Of a stretch of 64,000 nt of DNA, positions 1 to 62,285 are shown piece by piece. The stretch's first letter is position 1. Every line of letters begins with the position of its first letter. Source of the DNA: Eubacteriales bacterium. GTDB taxonomy: Bacteria > Bacillota > Clostridia > Oscillospirales > CAG-272. A program made the translations under genes and the position numbers. The notes beneath the pieces were generated by a model. That model did no database searches. It worked only from the letters and a program-made list of their open reading frames with translations, and was not told where the DNA came from. The DNA is taken from NCBI GenBank assembly GCA_045597145.1, contig JAZODU010000060.1:9562-73561 (forward strand), read 5' to 3'.

Positions 1-1138
1 GATGCTTCAATTCGGAGGCGTTCTTTGCGGCAAGCTCGACCTGCCGCGCCGTGTCGCCGTCCGCCGTGCAAAGGATCGCGCAAACGCCTGCCGCTTGGAA
101 GCGGTATTCAAAGTCGTGCTCCTGCAACTGATTGGGTGCGGGAATGGCGATCGCGCCGAGCTTGTTCAGCCCCAGCATAGCAAACCAGAACTGATAGTGA
201 CGCTTGAGCACCAGCATCACGCGGTCGCCCTTTTTGATGCCGAGGGACTTGAAGTAGTTTGCGCACTGTGCCGATGCGCGCTTGATGTCCTTGAAGGTGA
301 AGCGGCGCTCGGTCTTGTCGTTTGAAACGTGGAGCATTGCGAGCTTTTCGGGCTCCTTTGCCGCCAGCTCGTCAACCAGATCGAAGGCAAAGTTGAAATG
401 CTCGGTGTTTTTGAACTTAACGGAAAGCGGCGTTCCGTTCTCGTTTTCCATCACGTCGATGTATTTCTGATAGATACGCTCCTTGGTATCCTTGACGGGA
501 ACGGCAGTTCCCTTCACGAGCTTCGCAGGGGTCAGCTCGGGGATCGGCTCGCCCGTGGGATTGAGAACGATCGCGTAAAACTCGCAATCCTGTCCGTCCA
601 CGGCGATCATTCCGTGAGGCGTGCTACTGTCGTAGTAGATGCTGTCACCCGCGTGCAGAACCTCCTTGTGAGAGCCCACCTGCACCATCAGGTGACCCGA
701 AATGACGATGTCACATTCCTGACCCGCGTGCGTGGTCAGCTCGATGTCACGGTGCTGTGCCTCCTCGTCGTACTCCGAGCGCACGTAAAGGGGCTCGGCG
801 ATACGGTTCTGGAATGCGTGCGCAAGGTTGTAATAAATCATTCCGTGCGCCTGCTCGATGCGCTGTCCCGCACCGCTACGCGTGACGGTATAGGATTTCA
901 GCGTGGGGCTGACGCCGTCGATGATATCGGTAACGTTGACGCCGAACGCCAGCGCACAACGATAGATAAACGCGAAGTTGAGGTCGCTCTGCCCGTTTTC
1001 GCAGGCAAGATACTCCTCTGCCGTCACGTCGGTCTTTGCCGCCATTTCCTCGGGGGTGTACCGCGTGATCTCGCGCAGCTCGCGGATACGCGCCGCCATC
1101 TCCCGTATCTTGAAATCCAGTCCGCTCATTTGTTTCAT
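1..1138 (-). CDS. HTH(XRE)-cupin::AMP-forming acyl-CoA synthetase fusion, N-terminal 379 codons only (3' end lies beyond the window); paralog of 1524..3791
   Basis: Absent from the supplied ORF track because no stop lies inside the window. The reverse frame is open from the ATG at 1138-1136 to the window edge. My translation MKQMSGLDFKIREMAARIRELREI...GDSIYYDSSTPHGMIAVDG...FKDIKRASAQCANYFKSLGIKKGDRVMLVLKRHYQFWFAM is colinear with the 755-aa product of 1524..3791. RBS AAAGGAGAG lies 7 nt upstream. Confidence 0.85.
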   Translation of the reverse strand, partial: MKQMSGLDFKIREMAARIRELREITRYTPEEMAAKTDVTAEEYLACENGQSDLNFAFIYRCALAFGVNVTDIIDGVSPTLKSYTVTRSGAGQRIEQAHGMIYYNLAHAFQNRIAEPLYVRSEYDEEAQHRDIELTTHAGQECDIVISGHLMVQVGSHKEVLHAGDSIYYDSSTPHGMIAVDGQDCEFYAIVLNPTGEPIPELTPAKLVKGTAVPVKDTKERIYQKYIDVMENENGTPLSVKFKNTEHFNFAFDLVDELAAKEPEKLAMLHVSNDKTERRFTFKDIKRASAQCANYFKSLGIKKGDRVMLVLKRHYQFWFAMLGLNKLGAIAIPAPNQLQEHDFEYRFQAAGVCAILCTADGDTARQVELAAKNASELKH

Positions 1139-1160
1139 CTCTGTTCTCTCCTTTCGGGAC

Positions 1161-1429
1161 GCAAAAGGCACTCGCCCCAAAGCAAAAATAACCTTGAGAC
1201 GAGTGCCTGTAACACCCGCGGTACCACTCAAATTGCGACCCTGTCGCCACTCTTGAGGTCGAACAACCTCTATGCCTTTACGCAGCAATCACGGAAGGGT
1301 TCTACTGAGGTGTCACGCACCGGTTCTTCCCTTCGGCTCGGAAACTACCGACGCAAATATCCGCCCATTGGCTTGCACCGACCGCCAACTCTCTGCAAGG
1401 TTTACGATATTTGTATCCTTTTCGTCAAC
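1161..1429 (-). promoter_or_regulatory. T-box riboswitch leader (candidate specifier GUA = Val at 1346-1348) with intrinsic terminator 1161-1208
   Basis: The minus strand shows a K-turn 5' strand GACGAAA, an AGAGAG bulge, a distal hairpin UUGGC-GGUCGGUGCAA-GCCAA and the K-turn 3' strand UUUCCGAGCC. An F-box-like UGCUGCGUAAAGG follows, then the T-box AAUUUGAGUGGUACCGCG (1217-1234). The terminator is AGGCACUCG...CGAGUGCCU plus UUUUG. The specifier call is a by-eye alignment. Confidence 0.85.
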
Positions 1430-1450
1430 GCCTTTATAATAGTATGTGTT

Positions 1451-1479
1451 ATTTTATCACATCTTTTTGGGTTTGTCAA
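1451..1479 (-). promoter_or_regulatory. sigma-A type promoter for T-box leader 1
   Basis: Minus strand TTGACA (1479-1474), a 17-nt spacer, then TAAAAT (1456-1451). Confidence 0.6.
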
Positions 1480-1523
1480 TACTTTTTTCGATTTTTTTAC
1501 GCAAAATCAACAGCACATCGCGA

Positions 1524-3791
1524 TCAAAGCTTGTTTCTCTGGATCTTACCGCTGATGGTCTTGGGAAGCTCGTCGCGGAATACGACCACACGAGGATATT
1601 TGTAGGGTGCGGTGTGCTCCTTGACGTAGTTCTGGATCTCCTTCTTCAGCTCCTCCGTAGGCTCGGTTCCCTTGGTCAGAACGATCGATGCCTTGACGAT
1701 CTGACCTCTGACCTCGTCGGGCATTGCGGACACGCCGCACTCCAGAACATAAGGCAGCTCCATGATGACGCTTTCGATCTCGAAGGGACCGATGCGGTAG
1801 CCCGAGGATTTGATGACGTCGTCCACGCGACCGACGTACCAGTAGAAACCGTCCTCATCGCGCCATGCAGTATCTCCCGTGTGGTACATACCGTCATGCC
1901 ATACCTCGGCAGTCTTTTCCGAATTGCGATAGTAGCCCGCGAAGAGCCCGCAAGGTACTTTTTTATCGGTGTGAACGACGATCTCTCCCACCTCACCGTC
2001 GGCAACGGGATTGCCGTCGGGATCGACGATGTCAACGTCGTACAACGGCACGGGCTTACCCATCGAGCCCAGCTTATGCGTTCCGCCGATGAGGTTTGCG
2101 ATGGTCAAGGTCAGCTCGGTCTGTCCAAAGCCCTCCATGATCTGCAAGCCCGTCGCCTTTTCAAACTGACGGTAGACCTCGGGGTTGAGTGCCTCGCCCG
2201 CGGTGGTCATATGGCGGATCGAGGAAAGATCGTACTTGGAGATATCCTCCTTGATCATCATGCGCAGCATCGTGGGAGGGGCGCAGAAGGTGCTGATGTT
2301 GTATTTGGCGAACATGGGGAGAATGTCCGCTGCGGAGAAGCGGTCGAAATCGTAGGTAAAGACCGCGCCCTCGCAGAGCCACTGTCCGTAGAGCTTGCCC
2401 CAGAGTGCCTTACCCCAACCGGTTTCGGAGATGGTAAAGTGGAGGCTTCCCTCGCTGACGCCGTGCCAGTATTTGGCGGTGATGTAGTGACCGAGGGGAT
2501 ATTTATAGGTGTGCGCCGCGATCTTGGGATATCCCGTAGTGCCCGACGTGAAGAACATCAGCATCGGGTCGTCGCCGCACGGCGTTTCCTCGGTGCGGTA
2601 GAAATGCGTGCTGTAAAGCACGAACTCCTCGTCGAAATCTCTCCAGCCGTCGCGCTTGCCGCCCACAAGAATCTTGGTGGTCAGGGTCTGGCACTTTTCC
2701 TGCGCCAGCTCTACCTGATGCGCCACGTCGCCGTCGGCGGTACAGATGATCGCGCTGACGCCTGCCGCATCAAAGCGGTACTCAAAATCATGCGCCTGGA
2801 GCTGGTTGGTTGCGGGGATCGCCACCGCTCCCAGCTTGTGAAGTCCGACCATGGCAAACCAGAACTGGTAGTGACGTTTGAGCACCAGCATAACGCGGTC
2901 GCCCTTTTTGATACCGAGCGCCTTGAAGTAGTTTGCACACTGCGCAGATGCCTTTTTCATATCCTTGAAGCTGAAGCGACGCTCGACCTTGTCCTTGGAG
3001 ATATGGAGCATTGCCAGCTTGTCGGGATCCTTCTTTGCGATCGCATCGACCACGTCAAAGCCGAAGTTGAACTTGTCGTCGCCGTGGAAATCGATCGCCT
3101 GCAAGAAGCCGTTTTCGTCCTCGGCGGTGGAAATGAAGTGATCGCAAACCAACTCACGGTTGACGTTTCGCGTCGGGATCAGCGTGTCGCGGATCACGGT
3201 TTCCTTTTCGTTCTCACCCGGCAGAACGACTGCCACGAACAGGCAGTCCACGCCGTCAACGGCGACCATACCGTGCGGAGTGCTACTGTTGTAATAGATG
3301 CTGTCACCCTCGCCGAGATACTCGATGTTGTCACCGATCTGCACCTTGAGTCTGCCCTTCATGACGAAGTCGAACTCCTGCCCGGAGTGCTTGGTCAGGT
3401 GAATGGGCTTGTTCTGGAGTGCAGGGTTGTATTCGTAGCGAACCCAGTAAGGCTCTGCGATCTTTTTGCGGAACATGGGGGCTAAGTTGGAAATTTCAAT
3501 GCCGTCCTCCTTAGCGGTCTGCTGTCCCTGACCGCGGCGGGTCACGGTGTAGGACGACAGGTGTGCGCTGCGTCCCTCAAGCAGATCCGTAATACCGATA
3601 CCGAACGCAAGAGAGCACTTGTGAATGAACGTGAACGGAAAATCCAGCTCGCCCTTCTCGTACTGGCGGTATGCCTCAACGCTTACCTCCGTCTTCTCTG
3701 CCATCGTTTCTTCGGTATAGTCGAAGATCTCGCGCATCTCTCGAATTCGCAAAGCGACCTCTTTCAGCTTTTCTGATTCGATGATTGCCAT
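1524..3791 (-). CDS. HTH(XRE)-cupin::AMP-forming (medium-chain type) acyl-CoA synthetase fusion protein, 755 aa
   Basis: The N-terminus has an XRE-like HTH (EVALRIREMREIFDYTEETMAEKTEVSVEAYRQYEKGE) and a cupin (KHSGQEFDFVMKGRLKVQIG..GDSIYYNSSTPHGMVAV). ANL-superfamily motifs follow: FFTSGTTGYPK, EGFGQTE, YHTGD..DGFYWYVGRVDDVIKSSGYRIGPFEIE and PKTISGKIQR. RBS GGAGGG is upstream. Confidence 0.9.
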   Translation of the reverse strand: MAIIESEKLKEVALRIREMREIFDYTEETMAEKTEVSVEAYRQYEKGELDFPFTFIHKCSLAFGIGITDLLEGRSAHLSSYTVTRRGQGQQTAKEDGIEISNLAPMFRKKIAEPYWVRYEYNPALQNKPIHLTKHSGQEFDFVMKGRLKVQIGDNIEYLGEGDSIYYNSSTPHGMVAVDGVDCLFVAVVLPGENEKETVIRDTLIPTRNVNRELVCDHFISTAEDENGFLQAIDFHGDDKFNFGFDVVDAIAKKDPDKLAMLHISKDKVERRFSFKDMKKASAQCANYFKALGIKKGDRVMLVLKRHYQFWFAMVGLHKLGAVAIPATNQLQAHDFEYRFDAAGVSAIICTADGDVAHQVELAQEKCQTLTTKILVGGKRDGWRDFDEEFVLYSTHFYRTEETPCGDDPMLMFFTSGTTGYPKIAAHTYKYPLGHYITAKYWHGVSEGSLHFTISETGWGKALWGKLYGQWLCEGAVFTYDFDRFSAADILPMFAKYNISTFCAPPTMLRMMIKEDISKYDLSSIRHMTTAGEALNPEVYRQFEKATGLQIMEGFGQTELTLTIANLIGGTHKLGSMGKPVPLYDVDIVDPDGNPVADGEVGEIVVHTDKKVPCGLFAGYYRNSEKTAEVWHDGMYHTGDTAWRDEDGFYWYVGRVDDVIKSSGYRIGPFEIESVIMELPYVLECGVSAMPDEVRGQIVKASIVLTKGTEPTEELKKEIQNYVKEHTAPYKYPRVVVFRDELPKTISGKIQRNKL

Positions 3792-3808
3792 TGTTGTTCC
3801 CTCCTTGG

Positions 3809-4075
3809 AAAAAAAATAAATAAACCCGTCTCAAAGATTTTTCTTTGAGACGGGTGTAAAACACTCGCGGTACCACTCAAATTGCGATGCTATCATCGCC
3901 ACTCTCGGAATCCGACAATTCCTATGCCTTTACGCAGCAATCACGGAAGCGCTCTACTCGGTTGCCCTTTGGAGCCTTCGGCTCGGAAGTGATGGGTGCT
4001 TGAACGCTTGCACTGTCGGTTCACACCAATCCCGACTCTCTGTAAGTGCGCCTGCTCGACCTTCTTCGTCACAGC
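3809..4075 (-). promoter_or_regulatory. T-box riboswitch leader (candidate specifier AUC = Ile at 3991-3993) with intrinsic terminator 3809-3857
   Basis: The minus strand shows K-turn GACGAAG, an AGAGAG bulge, a distal hairpin UCGG-GAUUGGUGUGAA-CCGA and CUUCCGAGCC. UGCUGCGUAAAGG follows, then the T-box AAUUUGAGUGGUACCGCG (3866-3883). The terminator is CCCGUCUCAAAG...CUUUGAGACGGG plus a long U tract. Confidence 0.85.
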
Positions 4076-4096
4076 CTTTTTTATGAACTTGCGCCT

Positions 4097-4125
4097 ATTA
4101 TAGCACGCAAAAAAGTATTTGTCAA
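4097..4125 (-). promoter_or_regulatory. sigma-A type promoter for T-box leader 2
   Basis: Minus strand TTGACA (4125-4120), a 17-nt spacer, then TATAAT (4102-4097). Confidence 0.7.
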
Positions 4126-4153
4126 GAGCTTTTTAAAAAATTTATGTTTTTGT

Positions 4154-4181
4154 GGGGGAACTTCTTGCAAGAAGTTCCCCC
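4154..4181. repeat. solo copy of the GGGGGAAC-TTCTT..AAGAA-GTTCCCCC palindrome family
   Basis: gggggaacttcttgcaagaagttccccc is a perfect 12-bp inverted repeat. The same unit recurs at 48874, with variants at 18528, 18948, 34371, 49273, 59859 and 60081. Confidence 0.8.
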
Positions 4182-4204
4182 TCCTCTCCGAGGTCTATCT
4201 CCCA

Positions 4205-4936
4205 TCAATCACAATTTTCCCAGTTGTGATAAACGTCCATGACGTCGTCGTCTTCTTCGAGCTTTTCGATCAGAAGATTCATGAACTTGATATCATCCTC
4301 GTTGTCAAGAGTAACGTAATTCGACGCCTGCTTGGTCTTTTCTGCCGAGAGGATCTCGTAGCCCGCGTTCTTCAGATCCTCCTGGATGCCGTAAACGTCG
4401 TCTGGCTCAGTGGTAATAACGAACACGTCGCCCTCTGCCTTGAAGTCGGCAGCACCCGCTTCAAGTGCCTGCTCCATCAGCTTGTCCTCGTCCACGTCGC
4501 CGTCCTCGTTGTTGATCACGATCTCGCCAACGTCGGTAAAGAGGTAGCCCACGCAACCGGTCTGACCCATGTTGCCGTGGTATTTGGAGAAATAGGAGCG
4601 CACGTTCCCTGCGGTACGGTTGCGGTTGTCGGTGGTGGCGGTCACGATGACGGCAACGCCTGCGGGGCCGTAGCCCTCGTAAGCGACCTCCTCGTAGGTT
4701 TCGCTCGTCGCGCCCATTGCCTTTTTGATGCAACGCTCGATGTTATCGTTGGGCACGTTGTTCGCCTTTGCCTTCTGGATCAGGTCGCGCAGCTTGGAGT
4801 TGGAAACGGGATCGCCGCCGCCCTCCTTGACCGCTACGGTGATCTCCTTACCGATCTTGGTAAAGATCTTACCTCTTGCGGCATCGGTCTTTTCCTTCTT
4901 ATGCTTGATATTCGCCCATTTGCTATGTCCGGACAT
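4205..4936 (-). CDS. yebC: YebC/PmpR family DNA-binding transcriptional regulator
   Basis: 243 aa beginning MSGHSKWANIKHKKEKTDAARGKIFTKIGKEI, the signature family N-terminus. RBS AAGGGAG. Confidence 0.95.
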   Translation of the reverse strand: MSGHSKWANIKHKKEKTDAARGKIFTKIGKEITVAVKEGGGDPVSNSKLRDLIQKAKANNVPNDNIERCIKKAMGATSETYEEVAYEGYGPAGVAVIVTATTDNRNRTAGNVRSYFSKYHGNMGQTGCVGYLFTDVGEIVINNEDGDVDEDKLMEQALEAGAADFKAEGDVFVITTEPDDVYGIQEDLKNAGYEILSAEKTKQASNYVTLDNEDDIKFMNLLIEKLEEDDDVMDVYHNWENCD

Positions 4937-4949
4937 GATTTATACTCCC

Positions 4950-5621
4950 TTATTCTTCGTTTTCATCATTTTTATTTTGTTGATTTGCGGCTACGGTATG
5001 ATTAGCATATGTATTCCATGTAGGTTCATAATCATCGCTCGCTTGATTCCCCCACATATCCCAACCTTCACGATTTCCTCTTGCAAACAATTCCAAATAG
5101 GGACCGGAAGAACAATTTTCGATCAGTGGAATAAACTCATCGGGTTTTCTTGAATGCTCACGCTTCATGGCGCGAACCAAATTCACCTGCGATCTGCCGG
5201 CATCCAAGGTTCGATTTTTATCTCCCTTAATTCCAAACAACAGAATTTCAGTTACATTCCTAAAGTAGAAACCAACACCTCGACCGTCAGGCATACCGTC
5301 TTTTCTGACTTTTTCCCATATAATATTGGTTTTATACTCAAATCCCCATGCTTTCATTACCGCCAATCCTTCCGGCAATAACGCATTGGGCACCCATAAA
5401 TACAAATGTGCTTTTTCGGCTGCAACACTTGATATAGGCAATTGCATAATATCTTCAAGTTTCATTGTGCCGTAACGATTCAATCGTTTATGCTCCGGAG
5501 CAACTTTGCCTGTTCGATTTTGAAATTGCCAAGGTGGATCTGCATATATTGTTTTATATTTTTTCCCTTCGGTATATCTTTGGAAATCCTCTATTGTCAG
5601 TTCCAACATCGTTTTTTCCAT
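4950..5621 (-). CDS. MT-A70 family DNA N6-adenine methyltransferase (type II R-M, M subunit)
   Basis: Contains YADPPWQFQNR (the DPPW catalytic motif). The start is placed at MEKTMLELT (5621), directly after the nuclease stop at 5624. The longer track ORF (to 5723) would overlap the nuclease by 100 nt. AT-rich coding sequence. Confidence 0.85.
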   Translation of the reverse strand: MEKTMLELTIEDFQRYTEGKKYKTIYADPPWQFQNRTGKVAPEHKRLNRYGTMKLEDIMQLPISSVAAEKAHLYLWVPNALLPEGLAVMKAWGFEYKTNIIWEKVRKDGMPDGRGVGFYFRNVTEILLFGIKGDKNRTLDAGRSQVNLVRAMKREHSRKPDEFIPLIENCSSGPYLELFARGNREGWDMWGNQASDDYEPTWNTYANHTVAANQQNKNDENEE

Positions 5622-5623
5622 CC

Positions 5624-6295
5624 TCAATACCCCTCTACACAAGATTTGCGAATACCGATTGCCAAAATAGGACAGCCACCATTCCGACGAGATTTTAAAC
5701 GATATTCCAATTTCCCCATCCAAGTAGTACTTGCACCATATTTGGGCATTAACGGTTTTCCGCTATTATCTGTGATTTCTTTAAAAATATCATTCAATTC
5801 CTTCGATCTTGTAACAATAATTCCAACCTCAATCAAACCACAATCAAAATACGTTCGCATTGCCAATAAATCACGGTCAAAGGTCTGATCCTTGCTATTC
5901 CACTCTAAATCAAAAGCAACTTTGTCTTTGATAAAATCGATATTATGACCGTCAATATATCCATCGATTATTTTTTCATCAGACGGTTGATCTGCGAAAT
6001 ATCCTCTTTTAGTGCCTCTTCTCGGATATAATTTAACCAACAAATCGCCCGTAATCCTAATTTCTCGCCACCCTAACGGATACAAAACATCGTCAAATTT
6101 TTTAGGAATTGCGGTTTCATTTCCACCAGCAGCTTTTAAATCATCAACAGAAATTGACAACTGCTCTAAACAATCTTGCAGTTCATTCCACTCTACAGGA
6201 AAAGCTTCATTCAAAATTTCCAAAGCATGACCATAATTTTGAAACTCAAATTTATCCAGTAATTGCGGGCGAATATACTGTGCGATATCATTCAT
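5624..6295 (-). CDS. BglII/BamHI-fold type II restriction endonuclease
   Basis: The N-terminus NYGHALEILNEAFPVEWNELQDCL resembles BglII YNHADEILNPQLWKEIEETL. The catalytic block NIDFIKDKVAFDLEWNSKD resembles BglII DIDFGKRDTLVEVQFSN and the BamHI EVEF block. BglII and BamHI sequences are recalled from memory. ATG at 6295; an alternative TTG lies at 6313. Confidence 0.75.
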   Translation of the reverse strand: MNDIAQYIRPQLLDKFEFQNYGHALEILNEAFPVEWNELQDCLEQLSISVDDLKAAGGNETAIPKKFDDVLYPLGWREIRITGDLLVKLYPRRGTKRGYFADQPSDEKIIDGYIDGHNIDFIKDKVAFDLEWNSKDQTFDRDLLAMRTYFDCGLIEVGIIVTRSKELNDIFKEITDNSGKPLMPKYGASTTWMGKLEYRLKSRRNGGCPILAIGIRKSCVEGY

Positions 6296-6319
6296 AAAGC
6301 AACACTCTACCAAGACAAA

Positions 6320-20821: not shown

Positions 20822-20910
20822 AAATAAAGCACCTTTCTTGATTTTGGTACGGCAAAAAGACCCCTTCCAAAGGATGTACTTCGGAAACGGCAATGTGCCA
20901 TATATGAAAA

Positions 20911-21054
20911 CCAAGCAGGGTTTGTTTTGCGGTTACCCGCATATTTGAGTCTGCTGCTTACGACGGAATATTCCGCCGGAGAAGCATCCGCCGAACATTC
21001 GATCACTTCTCTCCTCGTCAACCGCACACACGTCCCGCGTGCGGTCTGGCGCTA
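20911..21054 (-). ncRNA. glmS ribozyme: glmS ribozyme (GlcN6P-dependent self-cleaving leader)
   Basis: The minus strand reads A/GCGCCAGACCGCACGCGGGACGUGUGUGCGGUUGACGAGGAGAGAAGUGAUCGAAUGUUCGGCGGAUGCUUCUCC. This contains the conserved AGCGCC cleavage site, GACGAGG, GAUCGAA and UCGGCGGAUGC blocks. It lies 90 nt upstream of the glmS ATG. Confidence 0.9.
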
Positions 21055-21106
21055 TCTTTTCCCTGATTTTCGGGGGTATTTTCTGTTTTTGAGGCGCAGA
21101 GTCCAT

Positions 21107-52381: not shown

Positions 52382-52415
52382 TCTGCGAATCAAAATTCAC
52401 TCATAACGGGTTCAA

Positions 52416-52575
52416 GATAGCACTCCGCATTTCTGCGACAGCACGGCGGATCTTGTCCGCAATGCCAGGATCACGCGCGCGCCCCGCATGTCCTTCGGCA
52501 CCCAATCCTTTTCCCACCGCAACGCCTGCGCAGGCTGTTCCGCGGCAGCTACTCTTATATAGGTGCGCCTCTATC
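52416..52575 (-). promoter_or_regulatory. lysine riboswitch (L-box) controlling dapA-dapB-lysA
   Basis: The minus strand reads GAUAGAGGCGCACC..AAGAGUAGC...GGGAAAAGG..GUGCCGAAGG...CUGUCGCAGAAAUGCGGAGUGCUAUC. This matches the conserved L-box blocks AGAGGCGC, AGAGUA, GCCGAAG, CUGUC and GGAG.GCUAUC. Confidence 0.9.
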
Positions 52576-52588
52576 ATTATTGGTTGCT

Positions 52589-60130: not shown

Positions 60131-62059
60131 TTATCTCTTCTTGGTCGCCACTTCAACAAGTGCGTCAGCGAGGAATGCGTCAACGGGCTTGGAAACGGTT
60201 TCGCCCGCGCGATTACGCACGGAAACGGTTCCCTCCTCGACCTCCTTGCCGCCGATGATCAGCATATACGGCACCTTTTGCAACTGCGTATTGCGGATCT
60301 TGTAGCCGATGGTATTGGAGGAATCGTCCAGAACGACGCGCAAGCCTGCTGCGTCCAGCTTTTCCTTGACAGCCTTTGCGTATTCCACGTGCTCGTCACC
60401 AATGGGAAGCAGGCGAACCTGCTCGGGAGCGAGCCAGAGCGGGAACGCGCCTGCGTACTTCTCGATCAGAAGCGCCAGCGTTCTCTCGTAGCAGCCCATG
60501 GACGTGCGGTGAATGATATAGGGATTGACCAGCTGATTATTGGAATCCACGTACTCCATACCGAATTTCTTTGCCAGCAGCATGTCGATCTGAATGGTGA
60601 TCAGCGTGTCCTCTTTTCCAAATACGTTCTTAATCTGGATATCCAGCTTCGGTCCGTAGAACGCCGCCTCGTCGATACCGATCGCGTAGTCGATGCCGTT
60701 CGCATCCAGCAGATCCTTCATGATACCCTGCGCCTCATTCCACTGCTCGGGCGTGCCCTCGTACTTGTCGGTTCTTGTGGGATCCCACTGCGAGAAGCGG
60801 AAGGAGCAATCCTCCTTAAGCCCCAAGGTTTCCAGCATATACATTGCAAGATCAAGACAGCCCTTGAACTCCTCTGCCAGCTGATCGGGACGCAGGACGA
60901 GGTGTCCCTCGGAGATCGTGAACTGGCGCACACGGATCAAACCGTGCATCTCGCCCGAATCCTCGTTACGGAAGAGCGTGGAGGTCTCCCCCAAACGCAT
61001 GGGCAGGTCGCGGTAGGAGCGCTTCTTGTTCAAGAACACCTGATACTGGAAGGGACAGGTCATGGGACGGAGCGCGAAGCACTCCTTGGTTTCGTCGTGG
61101 GGGTCCCCCAACACGAACATGCCGTCAAGATAGTGATCCCAGTGACCCGAGATCTTATAAAGCTCTCTCTTTGCCATCAAGGGCGTTTTGGTGAGCAGGT
61201 AGCCGCGCTTCTGCTCCTCGTCCTCGACCCATCTCTGAAGCGTCTGGATCACGCGCGCGCCCTTGGGAAGCATGATGGGAAGTCCCTGACCGATGACGTC
61301 AACGGTTGTAAAGAGCTCCAATTCGCGTCCGAGCTTGTTGTGGTCGCGCTTGAGTGCCTCCTCCTGCTGTTGGACATATGCGTTCAGCTCGTCCTTGGTC
61401 GGGAACGCGATGCCGTAGATTCTCTGGAGCATCTTGTTCTTCTGGTCGCCCTTCCAATATGCGCCCGTGCACTGGGACGGCATGATCGCCTTGACGGCAC
61501 CCGTGGTAAAGAGGTGCGGGCCTGCGCACAGATCGGTAAATTCACCCTGCTTGTAGAAGCTGATGACCGCGTCCTCGGGCAGCTCCTCGATCAGCTGTAC
61601 CTTATAGGGCTCGTTCTTTTCCTGCATCAGCGCGATCGCCTCGGCGCGAGGCAGCTCAAATCTCTCGATTTTAAGGTTCTCCTTGACGATCTTCTACATC
61701 TCACCCTCAAGTGCCTTAAGCGCCTCGGGCGTGAAGGTGACATCGGAGTCGATATCGTAATAAAAGCCGTTTTCAACGGCAGGACCGATGGTCAGCTTGG
61801 CATCGGGATACAGGCGCTTGACCGCCTGCGCGAGAATATGCGACGCGGTATGGCGAAACAGATGCTTTCCAGCGGTGTCCTCAAAGGTCAGAAGCTTGAC
61901 CTCGGCATCCTCGGTCAGCTCGTACGTCATGGCAACGGTCTTGCCGCCGATCTCGGCACCGATGTGCGCGCGCGTGACCAACTCCATATCCCTTGCGGCG
62001 TCGTACACCGTTACGGGGGCGTCGTATTCGCGTACCTGATCCATAATTTTGATTTGCAT
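60131..62059 (-). pseudogene. thrS: threonine--tRNA ligase with one in-frame TAG at 61694-61696 (pseudogene, base-call error or recoding)
   Basis: Two track ORFs (61694..62113 and 60131..61627) share one frame. The joined read is ...[48 protein letters not shown]..., colinear with ThrRS (TGS domain, HTASHILAQA editing motif, class II core, anticodon domain). Start at MQIKIMDQ (62059). Confidence 0.85.
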
Positions 62060-62098
62060 GGTGTTGTTTTCCTTTCTGTATGTAAGTAAAATAATTAA

Positions 62099-62285
62099 CA
62101 AAAAATACCACACCCCGACAGATGATCACTCTCTGCTCGGGGTGTGGAAAATTCCGCACGGTTCCACCCGGACGTTTTACTTCATTGGTATGAAATTGTC
62201 ATAGAAAAGTGGTACCCCATACCCTCTGCGCGAGCTCTTCCAGCGAATCCTTTCGGAAACGAGCCCTTCTCTGTGACGCAGGTCG
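62099..62285 (-). promoter_or_regulatory. T-box riboswitch leader, Thr specifier ACC (62211-62213)
   Basis: On the minus strand Stem I runs GUCACAGAGAAG...GGGGU-ACC-A-CUUUUCUAUGAC. The T-box is GGGUGGAACCGUGCGG (62154-62169). The terminator is CCACACCCCGA...UCGGGGUGUGG plus UAUUUUUUG (62099-62147). Confidence 0.85.

Follow-up and report, generated by a model that had tools for sequence, protein, structure and literature searches.

For about 60 years it has been known that many fibre-degrading anaerobes require isobutyrate, 2-methylbutyrate and isovalerate for Val, Ile and Leu, respectively, and the physiological work of Allison and Bryant showed that rumen anaerobes carboxylate these isoacids reductively to branched-chain amino acids (BCAAs). 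In the literature that we searched, the classical isoacid work assigned neither genes nor regulation to this route, and no assignment of the genes that convert isoacids to BCAAs, or of their control, was found for Firmicutes. A second group of described systems, the BCAA T-box riboswitches such as those of ilv-leu, ileS and valS in B. subtilis, raises the supply of the cognate amino acid by acting on aminoacyl-tRNA synthetase, ilv-leu and transporter genes. Here we describe two adjacent paralogous genes at positions 1-4125 of a 64,000-nucleotide stretch of contig JAZODU010000060.1 from an Eubacteriales bacterium (this whole stretch is referred to as the window). Each gene encodes a helix-turn-helix (HTH) and cupin module joined to an acyl-CoA synthetase and lies behind its own T-box leader, with an Ile specifier (AUC) in one leader and a Val specifier (GUA) in the other. 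The genes for the conversion of isoacids to BCAAs in gut and rumen anaerobes have long been sought, and this pair points to candidates for them.

Both leaders share with the BCAA T-boxes a Stem I with K-turn, specifier loop, AG bulge and distal loop, as well as an antiterminator, with its UGGN bulge, set against a terminator; AUC and GUA would report the charging of Ile and Val tRNAs, and the aim would again be a greater supply of the matching amino acid. The difference lies in the genes controlled and in their arrangement. The genes controlled here encode acyl-CoA synthetases and a 2-keto acid oxidoreductase that depends on ferredoxin, suggestive of fatty-acid salvage, rather than aminoacyl-tRNA synthetases, ilv-leu enzymes or transporters, and a single gene array holds two or three consecutive T-boxes that differ in specificity. 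With the isoacid route of the rumen, the locus shares the predicted chemistry (from the acid through acyl-CoA and 2-keto acid to Val, Ile and Leu), VorB-type subunits beside the synthetases in relatives, and carriers that are largely from rumen and gut; what differs is that a candidate gene set with tRNA-dependent control is proposed here. The riboswitch class, the enzyme superfamily and the physiology were already known. As far as we found, the linkage of T-box, acyl-CoA ligase and Vor, the serial Ile/Val(/Leu) arrangement and the partnership of HTH-cupin and synthetase are new within the literature searched. A preliminary description of this DNA, made from the letters alone, had held that no acyl-CoA ligase was described as a T-box regulon member, and in the literature searched, which included Wels 2008, Sun 2013 and TBDB, we likewise met no report of a T-box that precedes a gene for an acyl-CoA synthetase or for a 2-ketoisovalerate:ferredoxin oxidoreductase (VOR); the key T-box reviews lay outside this search and an earlier description is possible.

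We regard it as probable (roughly 80%), on the basis of sequence and synteny, that the locus is the front half of a tRNA-gated BCAA salvage operon. Transcription of each gene would start at a strong σA promoter of its own and run into a transcriptional T-box leader, at which uncharged tRNA-Ile(GAU) would bind leader 2 (AUC) or uncharged tRNA-Val(UAC) would bind leader 1 (GUA). The free ACCA at the 3′ end of the tRNA would pair with the UGGU bulge and stabilise the weak antiterminator against the stronger terminator, and the polymerase would then read into the gene; A73 is the usual discriminator in tRNA-Ile and tRNA-Val, and UGGU would pair with it. No tRNA gene was found within the 64-kb window. 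The Ile-class ligase (with Gly460 and Leu463) would convert exogenous 2-methylbutyrate to 2-methylbutyryl-CoA, and the Val-class ligase (with Ala and Met at these positions) exogenous isobutyrate to isobutyryl-CoA. The Val unit would run on beyond the window edge into genes for a P-loop nucleoside triphosphatase (NTPase) and for the delta, alpha, beta and gamma subunits of VOR, which would carboxylate the acyl-CoAs reductively to the 2-keto acids, and the last step to Ile and Val would fall to a branched-chain aminotransferase, which some species encode within the cluster. AMP-forming ligases work from the acid to the CoA ester, and induction by uncharged tRNA would imply the anabolic direction. 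The RNA elements, the specifiers, the domain architecture, the homology and the conserved synteny on which this proposal draws are established.

The preliminary description had placed at the two genes two T-box leaders, with AGAGAG, a GGUG distal loop, a T-box sequence and a competing terminator. Both were recovered as full-length matches to the Rfam family RF00230, and their folds agreed with this arrangement (Table 1). AGAGAG, the GGUG distal loop and AAUUUGAGUGGUACCGCG were present in leader 1 and in leader 2, and the K-turn/GA motif, specifier loop, AG bulge and distal loop of Stem I were identified both in the covariance-model alignment and in an alignment of 142 leader regions. The RF00230 alignment returned the same two specifier triplets, at the same coordinates, as had been read by eye. 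As also described before, the leaders were near-identical from Stem II to the T-box sequence and differed in Stem I; Stem III showed compensatory changes. The antiterminators (-13.9 kcal/mol in leader 1 and -8.8 kcal/mol in leader 2, with the 7-nt bulge UGGUACC) were weaker than the terminators, and in both leaders the two structures compete for the CUCAA(A/G)G strand; these energies correspond to the classical T-box arrangement. The terminator of leader 1, which has a U tract of 4 U, was missed in a simple scan.

Table 1. Positions in the window of the promoters, leaders and genes of the two units
Feature	Position	Strand	Evidence
Ile-unit promoter, σA-type	4097..4125	-	TTGACA-17-TATAAT, 12/12 matches, TG extended -10
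T-box leader 2, Ile-specific (Stem I, Stem II/IIA-B, Stem III, antiterminator)	3843..4081	-	RF00230, 80.2 bits, E 6.6e-17, model positions 1-219
Specifier AUC (Ile), then A3990	3991..3993	-	covariance-model alignment
T-box sequence AAUUUGAGUGGUACCGCG, leader 2	3866..3883	-	antiterminator fold with 7-nt bulge
Intrinsic terminator, leader 2	3824..3855	-	14-bp stem then U tract; -23.5 kcal/mol, z -7.9
Gene 2, 755 aa, HTH(XRE)-cupin::Macs-type acyl-CoA synthetase, Ile-class	1524..3791	-	open reading frame and domain matches
Gene 2 domains	residues: HTH_3 16-70; Cupin_2 134-188; AMP-binding 251-621; AMP-binding_C 671-749		profile matches
Val-unit promoter, σA-type	1451..1479	-	TTGACA-17-TAAAAT with TG, 11/12 matches
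T-box leader 1, Val-specific	1192..1437	-	RF00230, 88.4 bits, E 5.1e-19, model positions 1-219
Specifier GUA (Val), then G1345	1346..1348	-	covariance-model alignment
T-box sequence AAUUUGAGUGGUACCGCG, leader 1	1217..1234	-	motif and fold
Intrinsic terminator, leader 1	1162..1208	-	18-bp stem 1208..1166 then UUUU; -32.2 kcal/mol, z -6.2
Gene 1, N-terminal 379 aa, Val-class HTH-cupin::acyl-CoA synthetase	1..1138	-	same architecture as gene 2; cut by window edge

All features in this part of the window lie on the minus strand. The claim that each paralog joins an XRE-type HTH and a cupin to an acyl-CoA synthetase agreed with the domain matches, and all four domains expected in the 755-aa protein were detected: HTH_3 (23.1 bits, cut-off 23), Cupin_2 (38.6 bits, cut-off 27.2) and, both far over their cut-offs, AMP-binding (PF00501, 219.7 bits) and AMP-binding_C (PF13193, 76.8 bits). 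In gene 1, Cupin_2 scored 46.2 bits and the HTH was matched by HTH_19 (34.3 bits, cut-off 30.2). Over 369 aa, the two proteins shared 56% of their residues; identity rose to about 86% where the synthetase begins (71/83 in a hand count on the alignment, close to the 70 of 81 residues counted earlier), and the HTH-cupin part had diverged much more. The near-consensus σA promoter reported ahead of each gene was found as described, and the architecture of both promoters was kept in the Ile-class and Val-class orthologous loci with a locatable promoter.

We examined the conservation of the pair in 80 species-level loci, the best 80 of at least 587 relatives confirmed (587 among the first 600 pattern matches) in a scan of species-representative genomes. 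The 80 loci were mainly from Oscillospirales, Ruminococcus and Acutalibacteraceae of rumen and gut origin, with Erysipelotrichaceae bacterium NK3D112 as the one cultured isolate; metagenome-assembled genomes of Clostridia hold thousands of homologs of the 755-aa architecture. Across the loci the order was Ile T-box, Ile-type gene, Val T-box and Val-type gene, and a second copy followed downstream in nearly all. The upstream copies were orthologs of gene 2 (74-90% identity) and the downstream copies orthologs of gene 1 (66-89%, versus about 55% across the paralogs). As identity to the own ortholog exceeds that across paralogs, the duplication that gave rise to the two genes is older than these species. 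The linkage to T-boxes, which the preliminary description had proposed to survey, held in orthologs: among the genes with enough upstream sequence, a T-box motif preceded 69/75 of the Ile class and 60/68 of the Val class. In a few loci a single T-box serves both genes.

Each paralog retained its own specifier in at least 80 species. The Ile-class leaders read AUC in 70/70, while among 61 Val-class leaders GUA was found in 58 and GUC in 3, the latter being one leader of the Stem I alignment and two Erysipelotrichaceae leaders outside the extraction window (L071, read from the Rfam alignment at 120.9 bits, and L061, read by its likeness to L071). A swap of GUA for GUC is synonymous only in this frame, which fits the Val reading and fixes the register. 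The 4-bp helix under the specifier loop covaried as well (GAAG/CUUC, GGAG/CUCC, AAAG/CUUU and GAAA/UUUC), and the distal helix of Stem I covaried strongly, with 15-63 two-sided changes per pair. RNAalifold recovered the distal helix alone from the Stem I alignment, as the central part of Stem I differs in length among the leaders; support for the register was thus taken from the hand-specified helix under the specifier loop. More distant fused pairs, with 40-49% N-terminal identity, read AUC and then GUC (L089) or AUC (L091).

The best described relatives of the synthetase part are two enzymes. Macs of Methanosarcina acetivorans prefers 2-methylbutyrate, as the preliminary description had stated for an archaeal enzyme of this type, and has a Gly in place of the pocket Trp of acetyl-CoA synthetase (Acs Trp416), with Trp259 used instead (PMC10455477). 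MbcS of S. aureus acts selectively on 2-methylbutyrate and isobutyrate, whereas isovalerate is a poor substrate and acetate is not used; it supplies FabH with 2-methylbutyryl-CoA and isobutyryl-CoA (PMC10026030). The synthetase part aligned end to end with Macs (3etc, E 8.7e-183). After conversion of the 3etc chain to native numbering (offset +23, checked with Arg490, Tyr525, Tyr527 and Gly459-Lys461, all named in PMC10455477), Trp259 of Macs corresponded to W464, the Gly at the position of Acs Trp416 was kept (GFGQTE), and the Gly459-Tyr460-Lys461 of the CoA site, Arg490, Tyr525 and Tyr527 were shared. Macs differs in that it has neither HTH-cupin nor T-box and no established physiological role, whereas here two specialised paralogs are present. 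The best NCBIfam match of the synthetase was MbcS (NF047394, 430.7 bits). A type selective for 2-methylbutyrate and isobutyrate would fit Ile and Val copies with another ligase at the Leu T-box; MbcS is, however, not an ortholog, feeds fatty-acid synthesis, and lacks the N-terminal module, the T-box and the adjacent oxidoreductase.

We compared 77 Ile-class sequences (including gene 2) with 59 full-length Val-class orthologs for residues that distinguish the classes. The sole strict class-specific residue in the synthetase was Gly460 of the Ile class, replaced by Ala in the Val class, and under a relaxed definition Leu463, replaced by Met, was added. These lie 4 and 1 residues from the pocket residue W464 and match Macs positions 255 and 258, and the bulkier residues of the Val class would be consistent with the smaller substrate isobutyrate. 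A preference for branched C4/C5 acids is suggested by Macs, MbcS and the T-box specifiers taken together.

Synteny extends the proposed pathway beyond the synthetases. In 61 loci the sequence extended past the last synthetase gene, and a P-loop NTPase of about 220 aa was encoded next, followed by a two-cluster ferredoxin of about 77 aa (the 4Fe-4S delta subunit) and by the alpha, beta and gamma subunits of a 2-oxoacid:ferredoxin oxidoreductase; the alpha subunit was reached in 48 of the 61. L077, which has about 1.3 kb of downstream sequence, contained neither the P-loop gene nor the oxidoreductase. The alpha subunit matched NCBIfam VorB (3-methyl-2-oxobutanoate dehydrogenase) with 547 bits (cut-off 399). 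Starting with the Val-class synthetase gene, neighbouring genes overlap or adjoin each other, so that they form one operon behind the Val T-box. A carbon-nitrogen hydrolase gene stands ahead of the P-loop gene in 10 loci, joined in 8 of them by a branched-chain aminotransferase (436 bits, cut-off 307), and in the single-synthetase loci L050 and L064 a more distant aminotransferase follows the oxidoreductase.

The closest long relative, L005, encodes proteins 90% and 88% identical to the two proteins of the window and is syntenic with it (RecN-YbaK-ArgS-YebC-ACS-ACS), from which the same downstream genes are expected to the left of the window. The core proposal of the preliminary description, that isoacid activation is gated by tRNA-Ile and tRNA-Val and followed by reductive carboxylation, was supported in each of the comparative-genomic tests made, namely the specifiers, their retention by each paralog, the Vor neighbours and the kinship with Macs and MbcS.

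The carbon-nitrogen hydrolase was located at 10940-12865 in L027 and was also present in L012, L014, L024, L030, L032, L056, L058 and L063, with no aminotransferase in L012 and L014. Its best NCBIfam match was the amidohydrolase PRK10438 and it is possibly omega-amidase-like; together with the aminotransferase, it hints at glutamine-driven transamination. The P-loop NTPase (10930-11592 in L005) has the Walker A motif GHYGSGKT and weak Pfam matches to CbiA/ParA, and no NCBIfam match or PDB relative was found for it. A NifH-like role in electron transfer was considered for this protein, and no evidence in its support was found.

A third copy with a Leu specifier had been anticipated to the left of the window. 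A Leu T-box does occur in some relatives, but on the other side of the array and ahead of a different ligase family, and there was no Leu paralog. In 8 of the 80 loci (L027, L034, L056, L061, L063, L066, L071 and L075), a LeuA-like gene and a gene for an 826-aa CoA-ligase fusion lie upstream of the Ile unit. The LeuA-like protein (476 aa) scored under the LeuA cut-offs, and the fusion joins a xylose-isomerase-like TIM barrel (AP_endonuc_2) to a FadD-like CoA ligase; in L071 the two genes span 1368-5592. A CUG (Leu) T-box preceded them in L027, L061 and L071, which is 3/3 of those with the upstream region present, and the helix under the specifier loop had its own variants here (GGAA/UUCC, GAGG/CCUC and GGGG/CCCC). 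The two genes could represent an isovalerate/Leu branch of this system, and poor use of isovalerate by the enzyme type of the pair fits both the lack of a Leu copy and the presence of a different ligase behind the Leu T-box. T-boxes with a CUC (Leu) specifier were also observed downstream of the aminotransferase in L050 (10952-11181, 121.2 bits) and, by motif and alignment only, in L064 (about 10368); the genes that they control lie further on, past the stretch analysed.

Several observations weigh against the salvage reading. Scanned at the Rfam gathering scores (93 bits for RF00230), the window gave two matches, a glmS ribozyme and a lysine riboswitch, and no T-box: leaders 1 and 2 are matched in full length but score below the threshold, and both were found in E-value mode. 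The margin by which they miss it is small, their E-values are decisive, and leaders of the same array in relatives exceed the gathering score (102.2 bits for an Ile-class leader in L038, and the Val-class leader of L071 given above). The nucleotide after AUC, canonically a purine, was C in 18/70 Ile leaders, and it was G in 12/70; the leaders that vary at this position include those of L013, L016, L017, L020 and L027. Four of the 80 loci (L035, L056, L063 and L075) carry the gene pair with no T-box detected by Rfam. The match to MbcS does not reach the equivalog cut-off of 850 bits, so that the synthetase is a related enzyme to which the substrate preference is extrapolated. The window ends inside gene 1 and holds no oxidoreductase gene, which is deduced from relatives, and in these the oxidoreductase sits behind the Val T-box only, yet Ile synthesis would need it too. 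The substrates, the direction in which the oxidoreductase works, the continuation to the left of the window and any role of HTH-cupin are what we infer from the sequences.

For the HTH-cupin module, the most class-diverged part of the protein, several roles are conceivable. The module carries 11/12 of the strict class-specific positions, all within the N-terminal 125 residues and concentrated towards the N-terminal end of the cupin region (residues 95-125). The consensus sequences of the two classes are only about 50% identical in the module, against 83% and 97% in the two synthetase domains, and within classes the mean conservation of the module was 0.75-0.83 (0.75-0.79 in the HTH part). The ExG signature of the HTH is invariant, positions 42-43 of the recognition helix vary within each class, and 2/4 of the canonical metal-ligand positions of the cupin are kept (H135 and E139, read from invariant columns). 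A PDB search with the N-terminal 230 aa of a single sequence gave no match; a profile of the module built from 59 sequences matched the Vibrio cholerae regulator 1y9q (E 5e-8) and many XRE repressors, as well as the epoxidase HppE (1zz6) over residues 12-182. With both two-domain proteins the module shares domain order and size, and with 1y9q also a PHG motif; it differs in being fused to, or encoded directly upstream of, a Macs-type synthetase. PuuR-type regulators likewise combine an XRE-type HTH with a cupin.

Searching 1.8 billion representatives with the window sequence as query, we identified 1947 relatives of the module, including many stand-alone proteins of about 185-195 aa with 30-46% identity. 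In 5/5 stand-alone examples with readable context, a separate gene for a Macs-type synthetase (43-53% identical) lies 3-40 nt downstream. As stand-alone modules adjoin Macs-type synthetase genes, the fusion joins a conserved two-gene partnership, and the module would derive from a separate small protein encoded immediately upstream of such a gene in other bacteria. Regex scans of 3 split-module loci detected no T-box motif. In Bacteroidota, a split pair was observed within an arginine-biosynthesis cluster (L085, 4001-6232, and also L086 and L087), with genes for ArgR and for argC-like, P5C-reductase-like and OTCase-like proteins in L085, and the partnership may serve other pathways there. An autoregulatory operator at the Ile-class and Val-class promoters was also considered. 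Inverted repeats near the -10 were seen by eye, and in a shuffle test there was no enrichment (z 2.8, from T/A runs, in 69 Ile-class promoters; z -0.3 in 59 Val-class promoters), nor was any class-wide palindrome found; the idea was set aside for these promoters.

Most likely, to judge from the sequences, the module would modulate the enzyme or its expression in response to a small ligand. It is quite possible that, in the T-box forms, it is an allosteric or structural appendage, or the remnant of an adjacent regulator gene, with no DNA-binding role; the cupin could, for instance, bind Ile or Val and so mediate feedback inhibition. The 1:1 fusion to the enzyme and the close spacing of the split genes, which suggests co-production, argue for such a role, as do the concentration of class-specific residues at cupin positions 95-125, the absence of an operator at the promoters searched and the control that the T-box already exerts on transcription. 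On the other hand, the HTH is conserved within classes with its signature residues, unlike a dispensable remnant, and the cupin has kept only half of its canonical metal-ligand positions.

We are more doubtful of a trigger enzyme, in which the ligand state of the cupin or adenylating domain would decide on DNA binding and thus on repression or activation of the operon or of other genes. BirA, in which the adenylate intermediate controls DNA binding, has an N-terminal HTH and an adenylate-forming enzyme in one polypeptide; both of its domains are unrelated to those here and it has no cupin, and it serves as a lead only for how the fusion might work. Such an operon would integrate need (tRNA charge) with supply (isoacid). 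The XRE HTH profiles, the two-domain regulator 1y9q, the invariant ExG signature and the accumulation of class-specific positions in the module would fit this, and the split homologs, standing first in two-gene operons with a Macs-type synthetase and no T-box, are autoregulator-like. Against it are the lack of a class-wide palindrome and of inverted repeats beyond T/A runs at the promoters, the variation at recognition-helix positions 42-43 within each class, the HTH_3 score right at its cut-off, and HppE, in which the same two-domain fold is non-regulatory. Less likely again is a joint arrangement in which the fusion is a bifunctional trigger enzyme, responding when the amino acid is needed and its precursor available, with the P-loop NTPase as a dedicated helper of reductive carboxylation, a reaction that is difficult on thermodynamic grounds. 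The cupin or the adenylation state would here report the isoacid, its acyl-AMP or CoA form or the end-product amino acid and control DNA binding by the HTH, and the P-loop protein would act in maturation or in ATP-coupled electron delivery.

For the pathway as a whole, the main rival to BCAA salvage is a lipid-primer function, which we consider improbable. The synthetases would then supply 2-methylbutyryl-CoA and isobutyryl-CoA as primers of anteiso- and iso-fatty acids, as MbcS does in S. aureus, and the T-boxes would only report scarcity of BCAA-derived primers. The best NCBIfam match is indeed the enzyme that feeds FabH with exactly these acyl-CoAs (PMC10026030), and BCAA starvation would deplete the primers too. 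Against this reading, the synthetases share their operon with Vor and, in part of the species, with a branched-chain aminotransferase. Neither fab nor other lipid genes were seen among the operon neighbours in the loci examined, and the division of Ile and Val specifiers between two paralogs agrees better with amino-acid supply. Both uses could coexist. That the specifiers are misregistered and the leaders answer other tRNAs (for example those for UCN Ser codons at leader 2) or general starvation is very improbable: the base after AUC does vary among A, C and G like a UCN wobble position and the thrS control (see below) was not validated, but the Rfam alignment puts AUC and GUA in the specifier slot, the flanking helix covaries in register, GUA and GUC are synonymous in this frame only, the third class reads CUG with helix variants of its own, and AUC and GUA are also the specifiers of Bacillus ileS and valS.

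If BCAA salvage is the function of these loci, more than 80 species would carry a complete candidate gene set of specialised CoA ligases, Vor and, in some, an aminotransferase, and the charging of the matching tRNA would control each ligase. T-box regulons would then extend to acyl-CoA ligase and ferredoxin oxidoreductase genes, and the specifier of a T-box could be used to annotate, at no cost, which substrate an enzyme takes. The comparison also exposes a widespread partnership of HTH-cupin and synthetase, fused or split. The cultured carrier NK3D112 makes the hypothesis directly testable, and there are practical ties to isoacid feed supplements and to the exchange of BCAAs and branched-chain fatty acids in the gut.

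The leader of thrS (62285..62099, minus strand) had been used as an internal control, the same rule for reading the specifier having returned a Thr codon. This control was not validated: RF00230 gave no match there at E<=0.01, nor at E<=10 in a 401-nt slice. The leader contains GGGUGGAACCG and a terminator (CCACACCCCGA...UCGGGGUGUGG) followed by the U-rich UAUUUUUU, a T-box-like 3′ half, and may be a reduced or atypical T-box. The gene itself (60131-62113, minus strand) consists of two open reading frames of 139 aa and 498 aa in the same frame, split by one in-frame TAG at 61694-61696 (GAG ATG TAG AAG ATC), which in this essential gene could reflect a sequencing error, a pseudogene or a read-through or suppressed codon.

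Elsewhere in the window, genes for a BglII-like restriction endonuclease (229 aa) and an MT-A70 methyltransferase (257 aa) were found between argS and yebC (4950-6313, minus strand). They look like a type II restriction-modification system that was inserted recently, because the syntenic relative L005 lacks both genes. The two RNA elements that exceeded the Rfam gathering score, both on the minus strand, were the glmS ribozyme at 20903-21064 (97.6 bits) and the lysine riboswitch at 52410-52581 (79.6 bits).

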